DNA of 32,000 bases. Origin: Promethearchaeota archaeon. Lineage in GTDB: Archaea; Asgardarchaeota; Lokiarchaeia; Sigyniarchaeales; SOKP01. Positions 7,592 through 32,000 of this stretch are shown here, one piece after another. Where the stretch lies: assembly GCA_030606485.1 (NCBI GenBank), contig JAUWGH010000010.1, positions 1 through 32,000 on the forward strand. Reading direction: 5' to 3'. Positions within the stretch are counted from its first letter, which is position 1; every line of letters begins with the position of its first letter. The notes beneath the pieces are model-generated. The model saw only the letters and a list, made by a program, of their open reading frames with translations, was not told where the DNA came from and did no database searches. A program made the position numbers and the translations under genes.

Positions 7592-10500
7592 TTATATAAG
7601 AATAAAAATTCCAGCAATTTGCAAATAAAGTAGAATCGCTGTTAAAATAATTAAAATGATAAATATTAATGTAGTAAAAAACCTCCATTTTATGGAGATG
7701 CGCCCTCTTTTTTCTTCACGATAAATAAAAAATAATAGAATTGCACCAAAAATAATAATTGAAAAAAGTATTAAAAATATATTTGGTGGAATAAAACCAA
7801 ATAATGTTCCAACAACTGAGCCATAAATAATACAATAATATATCAGCTTTACTCGGAAACTACTTTCTGGGTCTTCACTAGCTAGATCACGCATAATTGG
7901 ATAAGCCAATAAAAATGTAACGACCAAATCAACTGGTAAAGCATGAAACCAAGCTAAATTTAAAGGAGGTATTGCAATGTTTTCTTCTAATAAGATAAAT
8001 ATAACTATAAAAATGATGATAATAATAATCCCCCAAATGTATTTCCAATTTTGCTTTAAAAAATTAACAAGTTTATTATAAGCCTTTAAAATTGCAATTT
8101 TAATAGAATTAAAGAAATTCACAATTTTCATCTTTAACGCTCTGAACTTTATCAAAACATAATCGATAATTTGACCAAACTGTTTTTTTAATTCTTCAAA
8201 AAAGAATATAAATGGATATAGTAGAAGTGTAATAACAAAAAATACTGTACTCCAAATATAGGATAAAGAAAAATAATAAACAATGACACTTAATGATAAA
8301 AAAGTAGCAATCCAAAATGGAAGTGCTAGTAATGAATGCTTTTGAAATGGTTTTATATCGATGGCAATAAAAATTAAAAGAATCAACATAGCAACACTTA
8401 AATTAAATGGCCAATTTGTTGTGTATGGTTGTAGCAAAAGTCCTAAGTATAGAAAACAATTTAAAGAGAGTAAGGATCCAAGAAATAAAAATGAAATTCT
8501 TCTAATTTTTAATCTGGACTTCTCTTTAAAGACTCTGATATTGATATCAAGATAAGATAAAACAAATAATATTATTGAAGAAAAAATAATCAAATTGATG
8601 GTAAATAAAATATCTAAACTCGCGAAATATAAAGGCCAAGATATAAAATTTACGTATAATAAAAATAACAATGATCTTTTAATCTTAGTTTTATTAGTTC
8701 TGATTATTTTTATATTCCGTAATAGATAAAATAGGTAATAGAATTCAATTATAAAGAATATTATTATCAATGGGATAAATACAATTGCAAATGTAAAGAT
8801 CAAATCTAAAAACATTATGGAAGATATCATTATTGATATCCAGGAAATAATTTTGATAGAATTTGACCATTTTGAGAGTAAGAATTTAAATAAATATTGA
8901 TCAATTATCATCATAAGATGAACAGCAATACTTAATAGCATTATTTGATATTCAATTGGTGCTAAACCCAACGCTCTTTGAATAAATATGAATAAAAATA
9001 GATAAAATTTCAATCCTATAATTCCTTGGATGAATAATTTCTTTTCTTTAAGGGTTTCGATTTTTTTATAAAATCTAGACATTATAAAAAATTGTTTAAG
9101 TGTTGAAAACAATGCATAATTGGTATAAAATTGCATTGTAAAAAATAAAAATAAATTAAACCAGAGAAGGTCTGGGTTGTCTATTAAAAATCGGTTTAAA
9201 AATATGAGTAAAAATATAGATATTAACAAATAACTTGTTGTATGAATTAAATATCCATATCTCTTCCTAAAACTCTTTACAATATATAATTCAAATATTG
9301 ATAATATAAAAAGTGTAATTAAAGAAATTAATGAACTCTCAAGGAATCCAAAACTCTCAAATAAACTGTAAATTAATAGTATTAGTTCAATATATAAACA
9401 AAAAGTAATCAATGAATATCCTTTTGCTTTAAAATCAAGATATTTTTCTTTAAAATATAATTGATTTAATAAATATATTGAGTAGAATGAAAATGAACTT
9501 TCAATTAATAATAATAAGCCTATATTGAAAAAATTTAGAAGCAGAAATATCCCAGAAATCGTAATCCAGTAGATTGCAAAAAGAATTTGAATGAAAATAA
9601 AAAATATAAATTCAATCTGGAGAACAAATTTAATTTGAACTATTTTATTATAAATTAAGCTTGAAAAGAATAATAACACAAAGGATAATAATAAGAAAAG
9701 TAATGTTGTTGGAAAACCAATCAATAATACAGTAATACCTGAAATTAAATTGGATATTAATGATGCAAAATATAAAGAATTCATTATAAGAATAGAATAA
9801 ATCAAATAAACCCTCAAGAGGGAGCTTATTTTTTTATATTTTACGTTTATTTGGGATAGAAAATAAGTTGATATCAGATTTAATAGAGATAATGTTAATA
9901 GTAAAAGAAAAATATCCAAATGGAAAAGATATAGATATATAGAAAATAAATTACATCCAACAAACCAAGACCAAAGTATTATCTGATTCCTTATTTTTGG
10001 AATCAAATATTTAAAAAGATACTTATCTACGACGAAACTTTCTAAAAACAAAATACCGCTACCTAATAATGATATAAAAAATAATGAAAACAAAATCTCA
10101 ACCTCAATCTCTATTAGAAAAATCCAAACATTAAGGAGAATAGCGGTTGGAAGAATCCAATATAAGAATAAACTCAATCCATTCAAAAATTTTGTTAATG
10201 GTTTGACTTTTAATTTAATTCCAGATAATTCAATATATTTCAAAGAGCATAATAATAATGCTGACCAAATTATTAAAAATTCAAAAATCTGATTATACCA
10301 AGAAATTGGAGTAAGAACTGAAATCCATATCGAAATAAATAATGAATTAATGATAAAACATACAGAATTTAGAATTCTTAATATGAGATCTTTCTGAATT
10401 ATCTCTAAATATTCATTTTTAATTTTAATTCTTCCTTTTTTAGCCAAATTACTGAATAAATTTATTATAACTTGCAAAAAACTAAAATAGACCATTAACC

Positions 10501-13500
10501 ATGTTATAATTCCAACAGTATGAATTATTGGAATAAATAATAGGAATGCTAGGATAAGAAAAGTTAGAGGAAATGGAACAAGAAACAGTAATACAAATCT
10601 ATACTTATCTAAAAGGGGATAGAAAAATAATATTAACACTGAACTAAAAATGAAACAAATAAACATTGGAGACTCTTGAGTAAATGGAAATAATAATGAC
10701 GTAATTGTTAAAGACGTTCCAAACGCCATAATTGTCCAGGGAATTGCTTTATTGAAATTATAAATCATTTTTTCATATCGATTAAAAACGAAGAAGGTCC
10801 CTCCAAATATTGCAATTGCAAAAAATATAGAAAATAGTTCAAGTCCTGGTATAATATAAAACGAGAAGAATGTTAATAAAGAGAAATTTATAATCAAAAT
10901 AATTGAAATAACAAAATGAGTATATTTCTTGTTTAATTTCAGATATTTTGATGAAAACATGCTAAATCCTAAAATAATAAAGGAAATATTAACAGCGATA
11001 AATGGATTGAGAAGAATTGCATATAAGATAAAATAAATTAATAAAAACATTCCAAGCAAAAATGTTGTATATGAAAAAATAAGTATTGTAATTTTACTTC
11101 TTATCATAGGAAAATATGAATAAATCATTGAAAATAGCCCTATAGCGATAAGAACAATAGATGTAATTATCTCGGGCAACATATTTAAAAACATTAAATA
11201 GAAAATTAAAAATACTATATTGATTCCACTTAAAAGAATCCATAATTTTGAAAGAACCTTCCAATACTTTAATTTGTAGATTATAGGCATTAATAAAAAG
11301 ATTGAAATAATTGTAAAAGAAAGATAAGTGAGAAGAAAGTTCTCTCCAAATATATTAAATGTAATCCATGCAACCAATCCAAAGCTTTCAATCCAGAAGA
11401 ATAATAAAATTTGACCAAAGTGTTCCTTAATTTTTGTGTATAGAACGGGTAAATACAACAATGAAGAAATTAAAATTGAAATAATTAATGACCCGTTAAA
11501 ATCTAATGTTCCAAAAAGTGTAAGTGCATTAGTGTATACATCGATATCAAGGAATATTCTATAGATTATGACAAAATTCACGATAGGAAATATATTCCAA
11601 AGCCACCATCCTGCTTTCCAAATTGCCCAAGATATCTTCCATTTATAAATTCCAATTGAAAGATAAAAAAGAAAAATTCCTAGATTTAATGAGATAATTA
11701 GAGGAAGAGGTTCTTCAAGCGGAATCGGTAAATAATATGTAAATAAGAAATATAAAAAGGTAGGAAGAGATATAACAATTGCAGTTAAAAATGTATAGAA
11801 TGAATATTTTCTATATTTCTCAGGAATTTCATTAAATAATAAAACAAATCCGAATCCTGTTATGCTTAAGGTAAAAGTGAAAATTAAAATATTATTAATT
11901 AAATCATCTACAGGGAGTATAAATAAAAATTGATAAGAAATATAGCTAATTACATCAAAAATAATTAATACAATTAAAGTTTTCTTATACAAATGATAAT
12001 TTTTATCCCCAATACGACGAAGGAAAACTGAATAAAAGAATAAAATTATTCCAAGTGAAATAGTGATATTATATAATAGTAAAATATTAGTGAAAGTCAA
12101 GAAAAAGACAAAAGATATTGCAGAAATTGATCCATACAGAATAAATTTTTCAAGATGGAAATGCTTTTTGAGGTTTAAAATTATAGCAAAAAATAATACA
12201 CAAGATAAAGATACTAAATATTCTATAATAAAAAATCCAAGAGGGATCGGCTCAAAAATAGAGAAATCAAAACCTGAATATATATGAAACATTAAATAAA
12301 ATCTTAAAAATGTGATATAACTAAGTAAGAAAATATTTAAAACTCTTAAAATTAAATTTTCATTTCTAACGCGAAAAATTATAATATAAAGAAGAAAGAG
12401 AAAAATGAAAGAAATAAGGGGCTCTATATAAAGAAGACTAATGAAAAGCAATAAATTGAGAGAAAATAATTCAATTAATCGAAATTTAGATTTTCTTTTT
12501 GAATAATAATTTTTTATGAAACAGTAATTTAAAAAAATAAAAATATTCATACATAGAGTTCCAATTAAAATAATTGGATTTTCATTAAAGAATGAAAAAT
12601 TTATTGCAAAACTCCAAAATATTTCAATAAAAAATACAAGAAATGAACCAATAAATGTAAAAATAGTGATATTTTCTATAAGTATTATATACTTATCTAA
12701 TGAAATTCTTGCTTTCTTTAGATATGAAATGGTTATTGGGAATAAAATCGAGAAAATTGCAATAAAAAATGTGATTTTATTAATAATTGAAAATGGCAGA
12801 TAATCTGAAATCAAGAGAATAAGAAATATTTTTACATATAACCAAGAGCCTAATTCTATAATTTCTTTTGTTTTAAAAAAATCTAATCTAAAAACTGATT
12901 CACTTACCTTAAATAAAACTAAAATTGATGAGAAAAAAGAAATAAAATATAAAAAATAATTCAATACAGCAAGATCTGGTGGAAATATTATTATTAAACT
13001 AATAATATTGTGAAATAACAACATCACTAGGTAAGATAACGTAAAAGTAGAACCAAAAAATATTATATTATAGCAAGTTTTTAAAGAACTACTACTAATA
13101 ATCCCCAGTTTTTGCATTTTTTTTAATGTATAAATATTAAAAACGAAAAAAATCAAAATCGATATTGAAATTAAAAACTCATTTATTATAATTGAAAGAA
13201 AAATTACTGACGTTGATATAGAGATAAAAAACCAAACAAATATCTGTGATTTATTGATTAACCTCTGATTAAGTTCTTTATATTTATAACGAATAGATAT
13301 ATATTCTAATAATTTTAAAAAACCAAATATCAAATATAGCGTACAATTAATACCAATTAAAATTAGAAATATACTAAAAAGAATTAACCCTGTATTTAAC
13401 AGATCCAATATGATAATTGTAGGAAGGATAATAATTGAAACCGATAAAGGGATATTATCTATTGCAATAAACTTTTTATACCAATTTTCATGAATTAATT

Positions 13501-15751
13501 TTTTGTAAAAAATATAATAAATTGGAAGATATAAACTAATACAAGACAAAATCACAGGAACAGTTAATACATAATAAGTTCCATAAAAGAACAGAAAAGA
13601 ATAGTAAAAAATGATAAAGGAAAGAAAAATAAATGCAAAACTTGTGAATTTAATTATAAATTCTCTAGAAAAAAGTTCCTCTTTAAGAGAAAAGATATTA
13701 ATTAACACACAAATAATTGCTGTTGATAAAAATATAGAAATTAATAAAAATGAAACATTTAAAACAAAGACTAATTCAAAAAATATGTAAAATAAGATTG
13801 TAAATAATTCACCAGCAACAATGTATGAATTAAACTTTACATAATTTTGATATTTTGAATTCGAAATTTTTCCTAACTTTACTCCAAATTTTAAAAGATA
13901 ATGAAGTGTAATTGAAAAAAATAATAGGTCTAATAATAGAGCTATAATGTTAAAAAAAACTGAAATAATTGAAATAAAAATTGAAGCAAATAAAAACCAG
14001 GAAGCAAAATAACTATAATTTAGAAAATTTCCCTTAGAAAAGATTCCAATAAGGTAATTTAGAAATGCAAACAAAATAAATAATAAAGGGAATAAAATAG
14101 ATGAAATTATTAAAGAATTAAAAAAGAATCCGGGATCTACAGCAGCTACAAGGAAATAAATTCTGAAATTAATTAAAATAAATAGAAAAATTTCGATTAA
14201 AAATGAGATTATAGTCAAACATGTTTTAAAAAAATTTGATGCTTTTCTCTTAAATCTACTAAAATATAATCTATACAGGGAACTTAAGAGAGCAATTAAG
14301 AAGATTAATGCATTTATGAAAAAATATGAATAAGATATAATGAAAGGATCTGAAGTAAAAACAATATATGCACTAAATATAAAAGGAAAAAATAAATAAA
14401 GAATAAGGAAAAAGCTAGAAATGATAAGAAAATCTTGAACAATCGAAGCATTTCTTTTGTCAAGTAATTTAATCTTTGCAAAAATTTCTAGAACAAAATA
14501 TAAAACTATACAAAAAATAATTAATTGTTCATTCCAATTCAATTCTAAAATTCTGAAACAAAAAGAAGCTAAAATTATAATAGTATTAGTCATATAGAGG
14601 ATTCTATTATATTTCTTATCAGAAAAGCCAGCCCTTTCTTCTAAATAAAACAGTATATTAATAAAAACGAGTGATAAAAATGCAAGAATTGGAAAATCCA
14701 AAAATAATAATAGTGAAAATATACTGGTGATTAATGTTAATGAAAGAATAGAATTGATTTTTTGACGATTTTTATGTCTAATTTGTTCCTTTTTTCTCCT
14801 TTCTTCACTTGCCAGTTCTAAATGGTGTGTATAATGAAAATATACATATAACTCAACTTTAAGAAAGATTATAATCAGGCATAAGATAATTAATGATATA
14901 TTAAATAAGTCTAAACTAGAAAGTGGGGGCATTAATGGACTAAATAGCATATGCAAAAGAATTAATAGAATTGATATACAGAAAAAAAGTCCAATATTAG
15001 AACTAACTAATTTTTGTTTAAATTCAATTAATTCATTTAAAAACTTTCTATTTTCCTTTATTGCATTAGTAATTCTAAAACGAACATTTCTTGTAAATAG
15101 AAGCGTAATTCCATAAAAAAATACATTTAGAATAAATAAATAAAACCAGGATAGTTGAGTATAAGATATAAACGCTAAAAATACAATTTGGATTATGTAA
15201 CTAATTATAAATATGAAATTGTGTAAATTGGTAAATATCGAAGTTATACCAACTATGTGCTTAAATCTTTTTTCTGCATCATCAAATAAATCAACTGGCT
15301 TAAAGTAAAAATAAAACCAAGTGATATTATAAATTACTATAAAAGCAATTAAAGGAAAAAGTCCAAATTTTCCAGTCTGCCATTGAGAAGTAATAAATTC
15401 AACTATTGGCGTTAAAAGAACAGCAGCAAATGTGACAAAATAAGAAATATGAATCCTGGCAACTAAATTGTTTTCTATGTTCTTAAAAAATGGTTTATCC
15501 CGATATCTATCAAAACCTATATAAAAGAAAAATAATGAAAAAGTGAGGGCTAAAAGTGAAAAAGCGATTGCAAAATGAAAATCTGATTGTCCCGTAATTT
15601 GAATCGTTATAAAATCTGTAATATAATAGGTTAATAAAGCACAAGCTATTGGAGCAATAATTAAATAAAAACAAAACCACCAAACTTTCCAAATAAACTC
15701 TGTTGCTCTTCTAATTCTCTCTTCAGAATCATTTGATGATTTTGAACTCAT
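7592..15751 (-). CDS. Giant polytopic membrane protein (2719 aa, about 80-85 TM helices by eye)
   Basis: Uninterrupted 8160-nt ORF in very AT-rich DNA with no competing long ORF on the other strand. Hydrophobic 18-25-aa segments alternate with short Lys/Arg-rich loops along the whole length. Confidence 0.93.
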   Translation of the reverse strand: MSSKSSNDSEERIRRATEFIWKVWWFCFYLIIAPIACALLTYYITDFITIQITGQSDFHFAIAFSLLALTFSLFFFYIGFDRYRDKPFFKNIENNLVARIHISYFVTFAAVLLTPIVEFITSQWQTGKFGLFPLIAFIVIYNITWFYFYFKPVDLFDDAEKRFKHIVGITSIFTNLHNFIFIISYIIQIVFLAFISYTQLSWFYLFILNVFFYGITLLFTRNVRFRITNAIKENRKFLNELIEFKQKLVSSNIGLFFCISILLILLHMLFSPLMPPLSSLDLFNISLIILCLIIIFLKVELYVYFHYTHHLELASEERRKKEQIRHKNRQKINSILSLTLITSIFSLLLFLDFPILAFLSLVFINILFYLEERAGFSDKKYNRILYMTNTIIILASFCFRILELNWNEQLIIFCIVLYFVLEIFAKIKLLDKRNASIVQDFLIISSFFLILYLFFPFIFSAYIVFTSDPFIISYSYFFINALIFLIALLSSLYRLYFSRFKRKASNFFKTCLTIISFLIEIFLFILINFRIYFLVAAVDPGFFFNSLIISSILFPLLFILFAFLNYLIGIFSKGNFLNYSYFASWFLFASIFISIISVFFNIIALLLDLLFFSITLHYLLKFGVKLGKISNSKYQNYVKFNSYIVAGELFTILFYIFFELVFVLNVSFLLISIFLSTAIICVLINIFSLKEELFSREFIIKFTSFAFIFLSFIIFYYSFLFFYGTYYVLTVPVILSCISLYLPIYYIFYKKLIHENWYKKFIAIDNIPLSVSIIILPTIIILDLLNTGLILFSIFLILIGINCTLYLIFGFLKLLEYISIRYKYKELNQRLINKSQIFVWFFISISTSVIFLSIIINEFLISISILIFFVFNIYTLKKMQKLGIISSSSLKTCYNIIFFGSTFTLSYLVMLLFHNIISLIIIFPPDLAVLNYFLYFISFFSSILVLFKVSESVFRLDFFKTKEIIELGSWLYVKIFLILLISDYLPFSIINKITFFIAIFSILFPITISYLKKARISLDKYIILIENITIFTFIGSFLVFFIEIFWSFAINFSFFNENPIILIGTLCMNIFIFLNYCFIKNYYSKRKSKFRLIELFSLNLLLFISLLYIEPLISFIFLFLLYIIIFRVRNENLILRVLNIFLLSYITFLRFYLMFHIYSGFDFSIFEPIPLGFFIIEYLVSLSCVLFFAIILNLKKHFHLEKFILYGSISAISFVFFLTFTNILLLYNITISLGIILFFYSVFLRRIGDKNYHLYKKTLIVLIIFDVISYISYQFLFILPVDDLINNILIFTFTLSITGFGFVLLFNEIPEKYRKYSFYTFLTAIVISLPTFLYFLFTYYLPIPLEEPLPLIISLNLGIFLFYLSIGIYKWKISWAIWKAGWWLWNIFPIVNFVIIYRIFLDIDVYTNALTLFGTLDFNGSLIISILISSLLYLPVLYTKIKEHFGQILLFFWIESFGLVAWITFNIFGENFLLTYLSFTIISIFLLMPIIYKLKYWKVLSKLWILLSGINIVFLIFYLMFLNMLPEIITSIVLIAIGLFSMIYSYFPMIRSKITILIFSYTTFLLGMFLLIYFILYAILLNPFIAVNISFIILGFSMFSSKYLKLNKKYTHFVISIILIINFSLLTFFSFYIIPGLELFSIFFAIAIFGGTFFVFNRYEKMIYNFNKAIPWTIMAFGTSLTITSLLFPFTQESPMFICFIFSSVLILFFYPLLDKYRFVLLFLVPFPLTFLILAFLLFIPIIHTVGIITWLMVYFSFLQVIINLFSNLAKKGRIKIKNEYLEIIQKDLILRILNSVCFIINSLFISIWISVLTPISWYNQIFEFLIIWSALLLCSLKYIELSGIKLKVKPLTKFLNGLSLFLYWILPTAILLNVWIFLIEIEVEILFSLFFISLLGSGILFLESFVVDKYLFKYLIPKIRNQIILWSWFVGCNLFSIYLYLFHLDIFLLLLTLSLLNLISTYFLSQINVKYKKISSLLRVYLIYSILIMNSLYFASLISNLISGITVLLIGFPTTLLFLLLSFVLLFFSSLIYNKIVQIKFVLQIEFIFFIFIQILFAIYWITISGIFLLLNFFNIGLLLLIESSFSFYSIYLLNQLYFKEKYLDFKAKGYSLITFCLYIELILLIYSLFESFGFLESSLISLITLFILSIFELYIVKSFRKRYGYLIHTTSYLLISIFLLIFLNRFLIDNPDLLWFNLFLFFTMQFYTNYALFSTLKQFFIMSRFYKKIETLKEKKLFIQGIIGLKFYLFLFIFIQRALGLAPIEYQIMLLSIAVHLMMIIDQYLFKFLLSKWSNSIKIISWISIMISSIMFLDLIFTFAIVFIPLIIIFFIIEFYYLFYLLRNIKIIRTNKTKIKRSLLFLLYVNFISWPLYFASLDILFTINLIIFSSIILFVLSYLDINIRVFKEKSRLKIRRISFLFLGSLLSLNCFLYLGLLLQPYTTNWPFNLSVAMLILLIFIAIDIKPFQKHSLLALPFWIATFLSLSVIVYYFSLSYIWSTVFFVITLLLYPFIFFFEELKKQFGQIIDYVLIKFRALKMKIVNFFNSIKIAILKAYNKLVNFLKQNWKYIWGIIIIIIFIVIFILLEENIAIPPLNLAWFHALPVDLVVTFLLAYPIMRDLASEDPESSFRVKLIYYCIIYGSVVGTLFGFIPPNIFLILFSIIIFGAILLFFIYREEKRGRISIKWRFFTTLIFIILIILTAILLYLQIAGIFILI

Positions 15752-18579: not shown

Positions 18580-20148
18580 ATGCTGAATAACAAAGAATCG
18601 AGAAATTATATTTTATCTTTAATTTTAGCGATTTTTTTATTGTTCCCATTTATTTCCATCCAGAAAGCAATAGATTATCAAGAAATTAATGAAGATGAAC
18701 AATTTGATTTGTTTAATCATAAAAATAATCTAATATATTCTGGTTATAGGAATCTTCCCCATAAAATACATATTAATAATAATTGGACTGTAACAAAATC
18801 TACATACGATTGGTGTTCCGGATCAGGAACTTGGAGCGACCCTTACATTATCGAAAATGTGATTATAAACGCCGGTAATTCAGGAAGTTGTATATTAATT
18901 GAAAATTCGAATGTTTGTTTTAAAATCAAAAACTGTATTTTAAAAAATTCAGAATGGGCAAACTCTCATGCAGGAATCAAATTAGCTAATACAAAGAATG
19001 GGCAACTTATTGATAATGATTGTTCTAATAATAATGGCTATGGAATATCTTTATTGAAAAGTGATAATAACACTATTTCAAATAATATTGCTAATTTCAA
19101 TAACGGTAATTCAATATATTTGGAGGATTGTGATAATAATACCATCTCCGAAAATACATTAAATTATAACGGGTGTGGAATGTTCTTATGGAAGATAAAT
19201 AATAATAAAATCTCAAGAAATATTGTAAATTACAATAGAGAAGGAATGGTTTTAAGTGATGGCAATAAAAATTATATCTCTGAGAACACCGTGAGTTACA
19301 ATGAAGAACGTGGAATACGTATTTCTTTTTGTGATTATAGCACAATCACAAGAAATAATGCAACTAATAATGAACATTCTGGTATATCTACAACTAATGG
19401 AGACAATAATGTCGTTTCAAATAACACCTTTAATATGAATAACGATGGGATTGTAATCGGGTGGTGTCAAAATAACACTATTTCAAGAAATACGGCTAGT
19501 AAAAATAAGAGATATGGAATACTTATATACGAACAGGCTTATCAAAATAGTATCTCAAATAATTCAATGTATGAGTGTAGCGTAGGAATCTTTGCGGATA
19601 TCGACCTAATTTCTGGAAATAATATTGATAATTCAAATTTAATAAATGGAAAGCCCTTATATTTTTATACCAATGAAAAATCTTTAGGATCCAATAATTT
19701 TACTAATGCAGGGCAAATAATTCTAATCAAATGTAATGATTCATTAATATCAAACTTAGAATTATCCAAAGGATCAAAAGGAATTTCCTTATATCATTGT
19801 AAAAATATCTTGATCTCAAATAATAGTGTATCAAACAATATTTTTTGTGGTATATTTATAAAACATAGTAATAATAATACAATTTTGGATAACACTATAA
19901 AAGACAATTACTATGGAATATGTTTATGGTTTAGTAATTATAATAATATATCTGGGAATATATTGATAAATAATCTTTTTGGTATAGATGAATCTGATAG
20001 TTCGGGGAATATAATAGAAAATAACCAATTTATTCCTACAATACCAGGATATAATGTTTGCATTCTAATCGCTGCAATTTTCGTTATTTTAATAATCATT
20101 ATTATTAAAACACGTTTTAAATTTGATTCCAAATTAATTTTTATTTAA
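18580..20148 (+). CDS. NosD/CASH-like parallel beta-helix surface protein with Loki-CTERM-type anchor
   Basis: N-terminal hydrophobic signal, GSGTWSDPYIIEN motif, many GIxLxxSxNNTIxxN repeats, and C-terminal IPGY + TM + KTRFK. Confidence 0.9.
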   Translation: MLNNKESRNYILSLILAIFLLFPFISIQKAIDYQEINEDEQFDLFNHKNNLIYSGYRNLPHKIHINNNWTVTKSTYDWCSGSGTWSDPYIIENVIINAGNSGSCILIENSNVCFKIKNCILKNSEWANSHAGIKLANTKNGQLIDNDCSNNNGYGISLLKSDNNTISNNIANFNNGNSIYLEDCDNNTISENTLNYNGCGMFLWKINNNKISRNIVNYNREGMVLSDGNKNYISENTVSYNEERGIRISFCDYSTITRNNATNNEHSGISTTNGDNNVVSNNTFNMNNDGIVIGWCQNNTISRNTASKNKRYGILIYEQAYQNSISNNSMYECSVGIFADIDLISGNNIDNSNLINGKPLYFYTNEKSLGSNNFTNAGQIILIKCNDSLISNLELSKGSKGISLYHCKNILISNNSVSNNIFCGIFIKHSNNNTILDNTIKDNYYGICLWFSNYNNISGNILINNLFGIDESDSSGNIIENNQFIPTIPGYNVCILIAAIFVILIIIIIKTRFKFDSKLIFI

Positions 20149-21319: not shown

Positions 21320-21502
21320 TCAATTATTCTTTTTTACTTTCACTTTCTCATAAATGGTAAGAAAATTCAGATGATATATAAGTGCTTTTAAGAATTCTTT
21401 CCGTTCAAGTTTAATTACTCCCAAAGTAAAGTATAATAACCCAAAATTTGGTTCTATTTTTGTTGCTTCTAGAATAGATTTTAAATTAAAAGAGAAATAC
21501 AC
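21320..21502 (-). CDS. Short TPR-like peptide, possibly a gene remnant
   Basis: ATKIEPNFGLLYFTLGVIKLERKEFLKAL fits one TPR unit; only 60 aa. Confidence 0.35.
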   Translation of the reverse strand: MYFSFNLKSILEATKIEPNFGLLYFTLGVIKLERKEFLKALIYHLNFLTIYEKVKVKKNN

Positions 21503-25035: not shown

Positions 25036-25998
25036 TCAAAATTCTTGCTTTGCTCTTTCTTTAAACCATTCCATAAATTTAGTGAATCTATTTTCATCTA
25101 TAATATCTTTTACTTTATATAAATGAAGATAACCATATCTGGAAAAATATATACCTAATTTTTTTATTTCGTTTTGTGATGGCATATCAGCAATTCCTCC
25201 AATTCTATATAGAGTATAATAACCAATTAATTGATTGAAATAATCTCTGTGCATTTGAAGTTTTTTTGTAGTTTTTATATCAATTAATTTATCATCAATA
25301 ACTAAATCTGCATCAGCCCCTCCAACTAGTTTTGAAGCTTTACCAAATGTCGGATTTAGCAAACATATTTCATTTGCTTTGAAAAAATCTGGATTAACTA
25401 GAGAAATAAGATTATTTAGATCCTCAATATCTTTACCATCAATATTATAACTTTTTGTTATATGACTCACCCTATAAATAGGATCTAATTTAGCAAGCAA
25501 TAATGTAGATTTTATCAGATTGTCATTTATTTGACCGTTTTTAAGAAATAAAAAATAATTTTTCTTGGCGTTTGAGATTATTTTTATTGCTTTTTGATAA
25601 TGTTTTTTGATGATTTTTATTTTTTGTTTATGATTTTTTATTGCATAACGCTTTTCTATTAATTTAAGCATTTTAAACAATTTTTCTACAACTAATTCTT
25701 TATTAACAAAAGTAAGATTTTTTAATGGTTTTCGCTTCTCTAACAATTCATTTACTTCAAGTACTAGTTCAAGCAATTTAAGTGAGCCTTCGGCAACCCA
25801 TTGCTTAGTAATAGCTTTTGTATTTAAATATTTTATATAAAATCGTAAAAGATAATCAAAAGATGTTCCAACCAATCCGTAATCTTGAGTTAAGGGGGGA
25901 CATAATATCTCTTTTTTTATATCAAATCTTGGTTTAGGATATTCTTCTCGAAATTTTTCTCTTACATCTTTTTTATTCAAAAATGAAGTTAAACTCAT
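25036..25998 (-). CDS. PD-(D/E)xK-superfamily nuclease (RecB-like motifs)
   Basis: GTSFDYLLRF; catalytic core GGADADLVIDDKLIDIKT and QLIGY (QxxxY); no Cas4-type Cys cluster. Confidence 0.75.
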   Translation of the reverse strand: MSLTSFLNKKDVREKFREEYPKPRFDIKKEILCPPLTQDYGLVGTSFDYLLRFYIKYLNTKAITKQWVAEGSLKLLELVLEVNELLEKRKPLKNLTFVNKELVVEKLFKMLKLIEKRYAIKNHKQKIKIIKKHYQKAIKIISNAKKNYFLFLKNGQINDNLIKSTLLLAKLDPIYRVSHITKSYNIDGKDIEDLNNLISLVNPDFFKANEICLLNPTFGKASKLVGGADADLVIDDKLIDIKTTKKLQMHRDYFNQLIGYYTLYRIGGIADMPSQNEIKKLGIYFSRYGYLHLYKVKDIIDENRFTKFMEWFKERAKQEF

Positions 25999-26036
25999 AA
26001 TTAAATCATCATCTCTTTTTATTATTTTTAAAGGTG

Positions 26037-26136
26037 GGACTCCTGCTACATAGAGGGGTATAGAGGGGGAGGGCGAAATGGTGTAGATTTAATTCCACAT
26101 CAACCAAAAGACAAAAATCCAGAGTAGCAGGAATCC
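26037..26136 (-). ncRNA. Putative structured RNA element, copy A
   Basis: Terminal stem GGATTCCTGCTAC/GTAGCAGGAGTCC (13 bp, one G-U on the minus strand) encloses an inner hairpin TGG-TTGA-TGTGGA/TCTACA-CCA; homologous to 31840-31946. Confidence 0.5.
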
Positions 26137-26146
26137 TTTTTTAATT

Positions 26147-27457: not shown

Positions 27458-28993
27458 TTATTCCTTAGGAGTAAAAATTAAATTATATTCACATATTCGA
27501 CCCCCATGTCGAAGGATACACTTTTTTAATTCTATTTGGTAATCATATTTTGGGTCAAATTTTTTTAGAAATGCAATTGTATAAGGAATACAGATAATTT
27601 CTATAAATTTTGAACCTCTTGAGGGATTAGACTCACCGCCAATCGGACAAAATTCGGAAGAATGTTTAACTCTTACATTATATTCATGTTCGTTCACTTT
27701 TTCTATTTTTGGTTCTGCCCCTAATACTTTATACATCTTCATTAAAGCGGCTTCTAAATTTGTTATGCCCCGACTTTTATATACTTTCGCTAAATTCCCT
27801 CCCAATAGGGTGGATATACTCCGAGGTAAATTTTCTCCACCAAAACTTATCATCTCATCTATATATGCATGAAAGAATTTTGAAGGAGTTTTTATTTCCG
27901 TTATTCCCTTTATAAATTCTTCCGTCAATCGATATGCTTCATCATCAGAATATTGTACTGGAGGATGTTTTGTAAAATATGCAGAAGGATAATATAAAAC
28001 ACCACCCTCATTTCTATCAAGTGCTAATTTACAACACCTTATTGCATCTATTACAATTCCTGCAGAATTCGGGGAATCTTCTACCGAAAGGCGTAATTCG
28101 AGGTTTATAGGAATGTCTCCAAAAATCCTACCTTCCATTCGAATGAAACAAATTTTATTATCTTTTTGCCAAGCTACCCAATCACTTGGGCCAATATGTA
28201 TATTTTCATCTTTCAATCGAATTGCCGTTTGTGATTGGACAGCTTCAGTTTTAGATATTTTTTTAGAAATTAGACGATTTCTATCTAGCATATTAAGAAA
28301 ATCAGTATTGCCTCCTGTATTAAGCTGATATGTACGCGTAAGCTTTACTCCTCTTTTCTTAAAAAGATTAGTTAAAATTCGGTGCACAATAGTAGCTCCA
28401 AATTGAGATTTTATATCATCTCCGATAATTGGAATTCCCTTTTTTTCAAATTGACTACTCCACTCAGGATTACTGGCAATAAAAACAGGGATACAATTTA
28501 TAAAGCCCACTTTTGCTTCTAAAGCACATTCAGCGTAAAATTTGGCGACTTTTTCAGAACCAACTGGGAGATAATTTATGAGCATATCCGTATTAGATTC
28601 TTTAAGTTCTTGAATTATTTCTTCCTTGCTTGATTCTTTTTGATTTGATAAAACAAATCTATATTTTTCATCATAATTATTCATATGATCTGCAAAACTA
28701 TCTAAAACTTTTCCCATTTTAACGATAACACCAGTTTTTGGAATATTATTGCAAAATATTCTAGTACAATTAGGTGGTTGAAAAATAGCCTTTGTTACAT
28801 CCTTTCCAACTTTCCTATAATCTATATCAAATGCAGCAACTACTTCAATATCACCTGGTTTATACCCGCCAATATCCCAATGCATTAATCCAATACAATT
28901 ATCATCATTTTTATTTTTATAATATTCAATACCTTGGATTAATGAACAAGCACAATTACCAATCCCAGCAATAGCAATTTTAATTTTCCGTAT
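27458..28993 (-). CDS. ino1: Myo-inositol-1-phosphate synthase fused to a C-terminal 4-Cys V4R-like domain; apparent ATA start
   Basis: The frame extends upstream of the tracked ATG (28885) to ATA 28993, giving (M)RKIKIAIAGIGNCACSLIQG. Motifs YLPVGS, GDDIKSQFGAT, QLNTGGNTDFLNM, SKKISKT, EDSPNSAG and KHPP are present, followed by a 148-aa extension. Confidence 0.93.
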   Translation of the reverse strand: MRKIKIAIAGIGNCACSLIQGIEYYKNKNDDNCIGLMHWDIGGYKPGDIEVVAAFDIDYRKVGKDVTKAIFQPPNCTRIFCNNIPKTGVIVKMGKVLDSFADHMNNYDEKYRFVLSNQKESSKEEIIQELKESNTDMLINYLPVGSEKVAKFYAECALEAKVGFINCIPVFIASNPEWSSQFEKKGIPIIGDDIKSQFGATIVHRILTNLFKKRGVKLTRTYQLNTGGNTDFLNMLDRNRLISKKISKTEAVQSQTAIRLKDENIHIGPSDWVAWQKDNKICFIRMEGRIFGDIPINLELRLSVEDSPNSAGIVIDAIRCCKLALDRNEGGVLYYPSAYFTKHPPVQYSDDEAYRLTEEFIKGITEIKTPSKFFHAYIDEMISFGGENLPRSISTLLGGNLAKVYKSRGITNLEAALMKMYKVLGAEPKIEKVNEHEYNVRVKHSSEFCPIGGESNPSRGSKFIEIICIPYTIAFLKKFDPKYDYQIELKKCILRHGGRICEYNLIFTPKE

Positions 28994-31812: not shown

Positions 31813-31839
31813 TTTGTAATTTCCTCTATTTTTAAAAGG

Positions 31840-31946
31840 TGACTCCTATCACAAATCAAGGGCTAAAAGAAGAAAGTCGATTTATATAAAGTAAATTTTT
31901 TTTATAGCACATCTAAGAGCTAAAAATTCCAATGTAATAGGAGTCA
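31840..31946 (-). ncRNA. Putative structured RNA element, copy B
   Basis: Terminal stem TGACTCCTATTACA/TGTGATAGGAGTCA (14 bp, one G-U on the minus strand); shares internal motifs and the 3' flank with copy A. Confidence 0.5.
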
Positions 31947-32000
31947 TAGTTTTTATTTCTCTAACTATTTAAATTATATTTCTTCCTTTAATTGCTTTCC

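Follow-up and report, generated by a model that had tools for sequence, protein, structure and literature searches.

At positions 26,037 to 26,136 of the window, by which we mean the whole 32,000-nucleotide stretch of Promethearchaeota DNA analysed here, two inverted arms enclose a short sequence that resembles a second one 5.8 kb away. The question that this locus raises is whether the element is a control signal of a neighbouring gene, a piece of mobile DNA or a gene in its own right. The first-pass annotation, made from the letters of the window, had proposed a minus-strand RNA such as a leader, a riboswitch-like element or a processing signal. Our best explanation as a whole, which we hold with moderate confidence, is that this element (copy A) is a gene for a structured small RNA of about 105–135 nt, or a recent duplicate of such a gene, and that the RNA family is uncatalogued; the mode of action proposed for it below, with an Sm-like protein and anti-Shine-Dalgarno (anti-SD) pairing, is one that we infer.

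Copy A is a full family member of about 105–110 nt (26030..26139, minus strand) and scores 110.3 bits with R1 and 58.4 bits (E 2e-12) with R2, the two covariance models described below. All of its parts lie on the minus strand. The closing helix P1, which covaries across the family, opens with the 5′ arm GGAUUCCUGCUAC (26124..26136; minus-strand letters GGATTCCTGCTAC). It is followed by the near-invariant single-stranded core CUGGAUUUUUGUCUUUUGG (26104..26122), which is Sm-site-like and may form a small GGAU/GUCU hairpin. The hairpin P2, UGUGGA-AUUAAA-UCUACA with G-U pairs (26082..26099), shows double-sided changes at 6 of 6 pairs in the family. Next comes the pyrimidine-rich single-stranded tract UUUCGCCCUCCCCCUCUAUACCCCUCUAU (26050..26078; family consensus GAUUUCGCCCUCCUCCCCCUAUUU), which is unpaired in the predicted folds of homologues, as is the core. 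The 3′ arm of P1, GUAGCAGGAGUCC (26037..26049; minus-strand letters GTAGCAGGAGTCC), closes the structure, and the tail CACCUUU (26030..26036; family consensus N-C-C-Y-U-U-U) is conserved after P1 in the family alignment. This tail is presumably the 3′ end of the RNA or a putative termination tract. Copy A represents the short form typical of its genus, in which a third hairpin, P3, is missing.

Copy B (31834..31949, minus strand) is a diverged relative, and the letters and coordinates of both copies are as the first-pass annotation gave them. The P1 arms of copy B are UGACUCCUAUUACA (31933..31946; minus-strand letters TGACTCCTATTACA) and UGUGAUAGGAGUCA (31840..31853; minus-strand letters TGTGATAGGAGTCA), with about 79 nt between them, compared to about 74 nt in copy A. 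Three outer-stem pairs switch on both sides between the copies, as had been noticed (G-C to U-A, G-C to A-U and C-G to U-A), and the one irregular pair in each outer stem is indeed U-G when read from the minus strand; on the plus strand it would be C-A. The distances to the next ATG, 38 nt 3′ of copy A (25998) and 27 nt 3′ of copy B (31812), were also correct. On the minus strand the folding z-score is -4.5 for copy A and -4.0 for copy B, a stability that none of 200 shuffles reached, whereas the plus strand of copy A gives z = -2.3 only. The arm pattern of copy B is expected 0.00 times in the window. Model R1, which was built without copy B, still detects it (33.4 bits, E ~1e-3; 27.2 bits with R2), and copy B is thus a true but distant relative. 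Its 14-bp P1 is intact and the tail is kept, the core is mutated to UUGGAAUUUUUAGCUCUUAG, and P2 and the C-rich tract are gone; in the orthologue of a sister genome, one P1 position has changed without compensation (alignment row L079). Copy B is probably a degenerate, decaying copy. Some features that had been described as shared by the pair need to be recast. The motif GATGTG is present, but in copy A it simply forms the 5′ side of P2. Of the reported conserved flank, CACCTTT stands, but as the element's own 3′ tail, and the AAAAATA that follows it is not conserved in the family. The homology of the two copies also stands, yet they belong to a larger family, with six copies in the genome and about 140 matches in the taxonomic family.

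The six copies in this 3.75-Mb genome of 29% GC were located by BLAST and covariance-model searches. BLAST of the whole genome with copy A returned C1:6071-6197 (91%) and C10:236711-236833 (77%), together with two matches confined to the core, C3:55752-55812 and C10:79046-79106. When aligned, copy A and these four have in common the invariant CUGGAUUUUUGUCUUUUGG, the hairpin and the C-rich tract. The outer stems of the paralogues differ in their letters and keep the pairing (GGAUUCCUGCUAC/GUAGCAGGAGUCC, GAUCCCUGCCAC/GUGGCAGGGAUC and CUCCCCCCAU/AUGGGCGGAG). Because the sequence-only search with nhmmer found five copies and missed copy B, structure-aware models were needed. Model R1 was seeded with five copies of this genome, copy B being left out. 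MAFFT alignments of the long form misplaced P2 and P3, and model R2 was therefore built from four consistently aligned copies from other genera, none of this genus, with a hand-written structure.

Of the 36 further genomes in the same taxonomic family, 35 had a match to R1; outside the family, matches were weak at most. R2 recovered all six copies in this genome. Within the family it detected the element in 12 of 13 genera and in 40 of 41 genomes, each of which has 1–12 matches, for a total of about 140. In a separate phylum-wide sample of 150 genomes, R2 matched all 25 genomes of the own family and one of the 125 genomes of the other 26 families, the latter weakly (25.6 bits). Covariance-model searching of this and other Asgard genomes, as the first-pass annotation had proposed, thus brought further copies to light, and the family appears, on these searches, to be specific to one family of Loki-type Asgard archaea. 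Copy number varies within the genus: one genome that is 100% complete has the syntenic copy only (see below), and others have three to six. The sequencing runs that contain the DNA of the window come from cold-seep and marine sediment. The 19-nt core also occurs in four IMG/VR contigs, of which one holds a true member and three hold chance 19-mers in coding-like sequence. The member lies at the end of a 224-kb contig that is filed as viral (IMGVR_UViG_3300029288_000001, L125:8-137), scores 30.5 bits, and has the core, P2 and the C tract, without P1.

The description of the element as undescribed was borne out. The window has no Rfam match at gathering thresholds; across six loci, searched against Rfam 15 at E<=1, the sole match on the element was a spurious NEAT1_2 (24 bits vs a gathering score of 60). 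No published description of the RNA family was found in the literature. A tRNA or tRNA-like identity was rejected, as ARAGORN found no tRNA gene and no cloverleaf in the window. A C/D-box or H/ACA sRNA was likewise rejected: CUGA follows P2, but the 56-sequence alignment has no conserved C box (RUGAUGA) or ACA tail.

For the structural statistics, 68 matches, which comprise 56 distinct sequences, were aligned to R2; this alignment is fitted to the model and so favours pairing. Standard pairs fill 98.2% of the 1063 cells of P1, P2 and P3, and compensatory double-sided changes occur at every one of the 21 pairs (10 in P1, 6 in P2 and 5 in P3). The covariation score is 0.384, compared to 0.158 ± 0.007 in shuffles, none of 500 of which reached 0.384. 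When, as a control, the 3′ partners were slid by 1–3 columns, pairing fell to 25–48% of the cells. RNAalifold, run independently, returned the same P1, P2 and P3, and in addition a small GGAU/GUCU hairpin whose pairs never vary. The paired cells hold 53 G-U or U-G combinations vs four A-C or C-A, which indicates that the pairing acts on the minus strand of the window. The earlier proposal of a conserved structured RNA read from that strand is upheld by this asymmetry and by the compensatory changes at all 21 pairs.

The family consensus reads, in its 5′ part, (A)UGACUCCUGCC - N3-5 - CCCUGGAUUUUUGUCUUUUGGUUAG - [P2] - CUGAUUUCGCCCUCCUCCCCCUAUUUUAUUU and continues, in its 3′ part, with [P3 GACCU-loop-AGGUC] - UUGNU - GGCAGGAGUC - (A/U)CC(U/C)UUU. 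P3 is a 5-bp hairpin, usually with a loop of 7 nt, which is present outside this genus and missing in the copies of this genus. The core CUGGAUUUUUGUCUUUUGG is the same in almost every one of the 56 distinct copies and, in this genome, is confined to the elements; in the family as a whole, about 35 single-stranded nucleotides are near-invariant. One strong member (L066, 86 bits) is without the C tract. No pseudoknot or other tertiary pairing is evident in the alignment, and P1 has no conserved bulges there, which rules out a bulge-helix-bulge processing motif. Two copies (L032, C3:55700-55880, and L035, C10:78990-79170) have an extra outer helix, GGAUAAAGUC/GACUUUAUCC, around P1, and these two copies have both flanks in common. 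A new RNA family with three covarying helices and some 35 near-invariant nucleotides, present in essentially every searched genome of one Loki-type family, is in our view well supported.

The genomic setting of the copies bears directly on what such an RNA could do. One copy per genome holds a conserved syntenic locus across many genera. On one side lies a divergent gene for a membrane protein of 124–131 aa; the co-oriented gene downstream usually encodes a radical-SAM protein with an HMPTM-type zinc ribbon. The syntenic copies lie 206–612 nt from the next gene and 160–380 nt from the divergent gene; in some genomes the downstream gene is convergent instead, about 50 nt off. At the C10 locus, a 1.1-kb gene-free gap (L031:860-2000) just downstream of the syntenic copy contains a direct repeat, GCTACGTAGAG...GCTACGTAAAG, and, ahead of the radical-SAM gene, a long AT-rich spacer. 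In a survey of the neighbours of 56 distinct copies, 28 copies had divergent (-,+), nine co-directional (+,+), six antisense-to-both (-,-) and three convergent (+,-) arrangements, and the distances from element to gene ranged from 33 to more than 600 nt. The genes downstream of the extra copies in this genome are mutually unrelated, including those that follow copy A and its C1 paralogue. The element is independent of any particular neighbouring gene. It is most likely, judged from its setting and its conservation, a stand-alone small RNA gene and not a leader, a riboswitch or a MITE.

These observations bear on the reading closest to the original proposal, namely that the element is a cis-acting RNA of the flanking transcripts, either a 3′-UTR stabiliser, terminator or processing module of the upstream gene or a leader or riboswitch of the downstream gene. 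The copies in the window would suit such a role. Copy A begins 10 nt past the stop of a 72-aa ORF and copy B begins 27 nt past a 68-aa ORF, each a short way before its ATG. Copy A, the C1 paralogue and the C3 55.7-kb and C10 79-kb copies all lie 3′ of small same-strand ORFs (72, 71, 91 and 91 aa, respectively). The U5 and U4 tracts in the core are archaeal-terminator-like, and a closing helix around conserved junction strands is how a riboswitch aptamer is built. The neighbouring small ORFs offer no lead: those of 72, 81, 104, 91 and 68 aa have no informative Pfam or PHROG match, and PADLOC gave nothing informative for those of 72, 81 and 104 aa. With no fixed gene, distance or orientation across the family, a leader or riboswitch does not fit, and the proposed role towards the next ATG, be it as leader, riboswitch or processing signal, was not supported: the copies stand in every orientation, at 33 to more than 600 nt, in places beside convergent genes about 50 nt off, and the paralogous copies precede unrelated genes. 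The same invariant tracts recur in 1–12 copies per genome, which argues for a shared partner and not for gene-specific control. We consider the cis-acting reading unlikely.

A DNA-level explanation, either a MITE-like transposable element or an attC-type folded single-strand recombination site that bounds cassettes, seems to us improbable to a somewhat greater degree. The element does resemble both in having terminal inverted repeats and many copies, from one to six between species of one genus, and in lying at the edges of duplicated blocks. The homology of paralogous blocks stops 10–36 nt past the element (copy A vs C1; C3 55.7 kb vs C10 79 kb), the draft assemblies of sister genomes break at it, and the three copies on contig C3 share one orientation. 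The G-U asymmetry, read as G-T wobble, would fit a folded DNA strand as well. Against this, there is no target-site duplication: the longest word shared by the two flanks averages 3.17, vs 3.08 ± 0.29 for mismatched flanks. Sister genomes and the DNA contigs from three other studies showed neither an empty site nor a clean joint left by removal of the element, and contigs often end at it. Conservation is higher in the interior than at the termini, opposite to what a MITE would show; P1 is free to vary, and one copy holds the same intergenic position across many genera. The first-pass annotation had likewise thought a MITE less likely, and the missing duplication and the locus that is syntenic across genera bear it out. 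As for attC, the R″ and R′ boxes (RYYYAAC...GTTRRRY) are absent, the ends reading AUGACUCC...GGAGUCAC, and copies 5.8 kb and 24 kb apart have several genes between them in place of one per cassette. The ancestral state appears to be one syntenic copy per genome; the others, copy A among them, sit in variable regions at the edges of duplicated blocks. Since there is no target-site duplication and no empty site, and since it is the interior and not the termini that is invariant, we read the extra copies as having probably spread by recombination or duplication at a dispersed repeat and not by transposition.

The putative assignment as a new self-cleaving or otherwise catalytic RNA is, to our mind, very improbable. 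It would account for a multi-helix junction with about 35 near-invariant junction nucleotides, and for many copies per genome with no consistent gene neighbourhood, a pattern also seen for twister and hammerhead ribozymes. However, no Rfam ribozyme matches even at E<=1, the conserved strands consist mostly of U and C, and the alignment shows no evident pseudoknot.

Signals upstream of P1 are consistent with a promoter. A TATA-like AWATAGR occurs 8–45 nt upstream of P1 in 19 of 55 copies, compared to 2.6% expected per interval of that kind, the counts being mostly of orthologous loci. The motif stands 20 nt before P1 in copy B (UUUAAAUAG) and in the C10 copy (AUUAAAUAGG), its spacing to P1 varies from 14 to 42 nt by our reading of the upstream alignment, and P1 is preceded by a conserved AA(A/C)NAU hexamer. 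With counts that come largely from orthologous loci and with this variable spacing, an own promoter for the element is plausible at most. Copy A may equally be cut from a 3′ UTR or be co-transcribed with the 72-aa ORF, as it begins 10 nt past the stop of that ORF. Within the RNA itself, the U5+U4 stretch is similar to termination signals of archaea, a point against our explanation. Metatranscriptome contigs that fall on the window (one metatranscriptome, 7% of the words of the window) cover 27750-28693 only, which is the inositol-1-phosphate synthase gene, away from the element; the other RNA runs contained next to none of these words.

How might the RNA work? The helices are free to vary and the two single-stranded tracts are fixed, which is the signature of tracts that are read by a constant partner. 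In the mechanism that we propose, the RNA would be transcribed alone or processed from a longer transcript and would act in trans as a stable ribonucleoprotein. The closing helix P1 joins the ends of the RNA, with P2 (and P3 outside this genus) inside, and these helices leave the invariant CCUGGAUUUUUGUCUUUUGGUUAG and the C-rich GCCCUCCUCCCCCU exposed as single strands; a short YCCYUUU tail probably terminates the RNA. Flanked by two helices, the U tract of AUUUUUG type would most likely serve as a putative platform for an Sm-like (LSM) protein, and the anti-SD-like C tract most likely as a putative seed for pairing with GGAGG-type ribosome-binding sites of mRNAs. Our best guess is a trans-acting small RNA for which an Sm-like protein may be the chaperone and whose C tract may pair with ribosome-binding sites.

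Several features of the genome are in keeping with this proposal. Between P1 and P2, the first tract (GGAUUUUUGUCUUUUGG) is built like an Sm site (RAU3-6GR) and is near the U7 variant AAUUUGUCUAG, and the genome has three LSM-domain genes (C6:252023-252217, C5:48575-48790 and C10:682255-682431). The second tract, GCCCUCCUCCCCCU, contains CCUCC, the anti-SD core of the 16S rRNA of the genome (3′ end GCGGCUGGAUCACCUCCUUUUU). The host appears to use SD sequences, with GAGG motifs before ATGs. Against the proposal, no extended antisense target of either conserved tract was found in this genome, so that the pairing would rest on short SD-like seeds, and the strong member L066 has no C tract. The 16S rRNA 3′ end, GGAUCACCUCCUUUUU, maps to C6:397-407, some 400 nt into that contig. 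The 3′ end of the small RNA, GGAGUCACCUUU, and the start of the core, CUGGAU, resemble pieces of the 16S tail CUGGAUCACCU, which may be a coincidence.

Sm sites are RAU3-6GR in spliceosomal snRNAs and AAUUUGUCUAG in U7, and the archaeal SmAP binds U-rich RNAs. The present element is similar in that its GAUUUUUGUCU tract is single-stranded between two helices and in that LSM-domain proteins are encoded. It differs in that a U, and not a purine, follows the G; the other features of snRNAs are absent, and homology is not claimed. The stretch GAUUUUUGU between P1 and P2 is invariant, with U at its last position vs the purine of RAU3-6GR, and it may instead form the GGAU/GUCU mini-hairpin. A bolder extension of the analogy would make the RNA the core of an Asgard Sm-type RNP, with an Sm-like ring on GAUUUUUGUCU between the two helices, held as stably as in eukaryotic snRNAs and U7, and the C-rich tract guiding it to other RNAs. 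We hold this to be quite doubtful; if true, the closest lineage to the eukaryotes would possess a prokaryotic RNP with the plan of an snRNP.

Small RNAs that target SD sequences through C-rich stretches are known in RsaE/RoxS of low-GC bacteria (Firmicutes) and in sRNA41 and sRNA162 of Methanosarcina mazei. The element shares with them an exposed C-rich tract with CCUCC in a low-GC genome that appears to use SD; its fold is unrelated to theirs, the member L066 is without the tract, and the genome holds no extended antisense target. GC-rich orphan small RNAs of AT-rich archaea (the HgcC/E/F/G type) were reportedly described by Klein, Misulovin and Eddy in 2002. Like these, the element is a stand-alone structured intergenic RNA that forms a GC island (0.42–0.48 vs 0.29 for the genome). 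Unlike them, it is multi-copy and restricted to one Loki-type family, and it has no sequence or structure match to any Rfam family. Y RNAs are also comparable, at about 100 nt, with a long helix of the 5′ and 3′ ends, a pyrimidine-rich interior and a short U tail, but no Ro60/TROVE protein is encoded and there is no Rfam Y_RNA match. PF05731 (TROVE) gave no match in the own genome, which is 100% complete, and the controls Deinococcus and Bacteroides were detected. The Y-RNA reading was rejected on the absence of this partner.

Asgard archaea are the closest prokaryotic relatives of eukaryotes, and, to our knowledge, very few of their noncoding RNAs have been described beyond rRNA, tRNA, SRP and RNase P RNA. 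In some genomes the family has expanded to up to a dozen copies, and the combination of an Sm-site-like U tract with an anti-SD-like C tract could provide an entry point into RNA regulation and Sm-protein biology of the Asgards. An Rfam entry for the family would be worthwhile, as its GC islands are otherwise annotated as spurious ORFs or taken for unexplained repeats at which assemblies break.

The surroundings of copy A in the window deserve a brief description. Just downstream of it, a 320-aa ORF (25036-25998, minus strand) resembles a PD-(D/E)xK nuclease and may be part of a defence system. Its matches are to PADLOC PDC-S61 (E 2.3e-11), to a PD-DExK family associated with RTs (5.6e-7) and to phrog_34041 (1e-20), with none in Pfam. 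Given this ORF, the surroundings of copy A are accessory and defence-like. The ORF also prompted us to consider the element as the RNA of a retron or DRT, a bridge RNA or an omega RNA. These readings were rejected, as a reverse transcriptase, IS110 recombinase or TnpB is absent from the vicinity and does not adjoin the syntenic copies either. The segment 26001-30514 and C1:6055-10686 show a mosaic segmental paralogy: the region of an Ldh_2-family gene (30514-29112) is 94% identical to C1:10686-9284, the 72-aa ORF together with the element (26369-26001) is 91% identical to C1:6411-6055, and the intervening segments are unrelated. Another dispersed repeat of 144 nt (21330-21473) is 89.6% identical, in inverted orientation, to C3:56996-57139, within a 342-aa ORF beside the C3 55.7-kb copy. 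Farther from copy A, a giant ORF of 2719 aa occupies 7592-15751 (minus strand), and the direct repeats with a period of 66–69 nt at 18580-20148 (plus strand) are ordinary protein repeats in a NosD/right-handed beta-helix protein.
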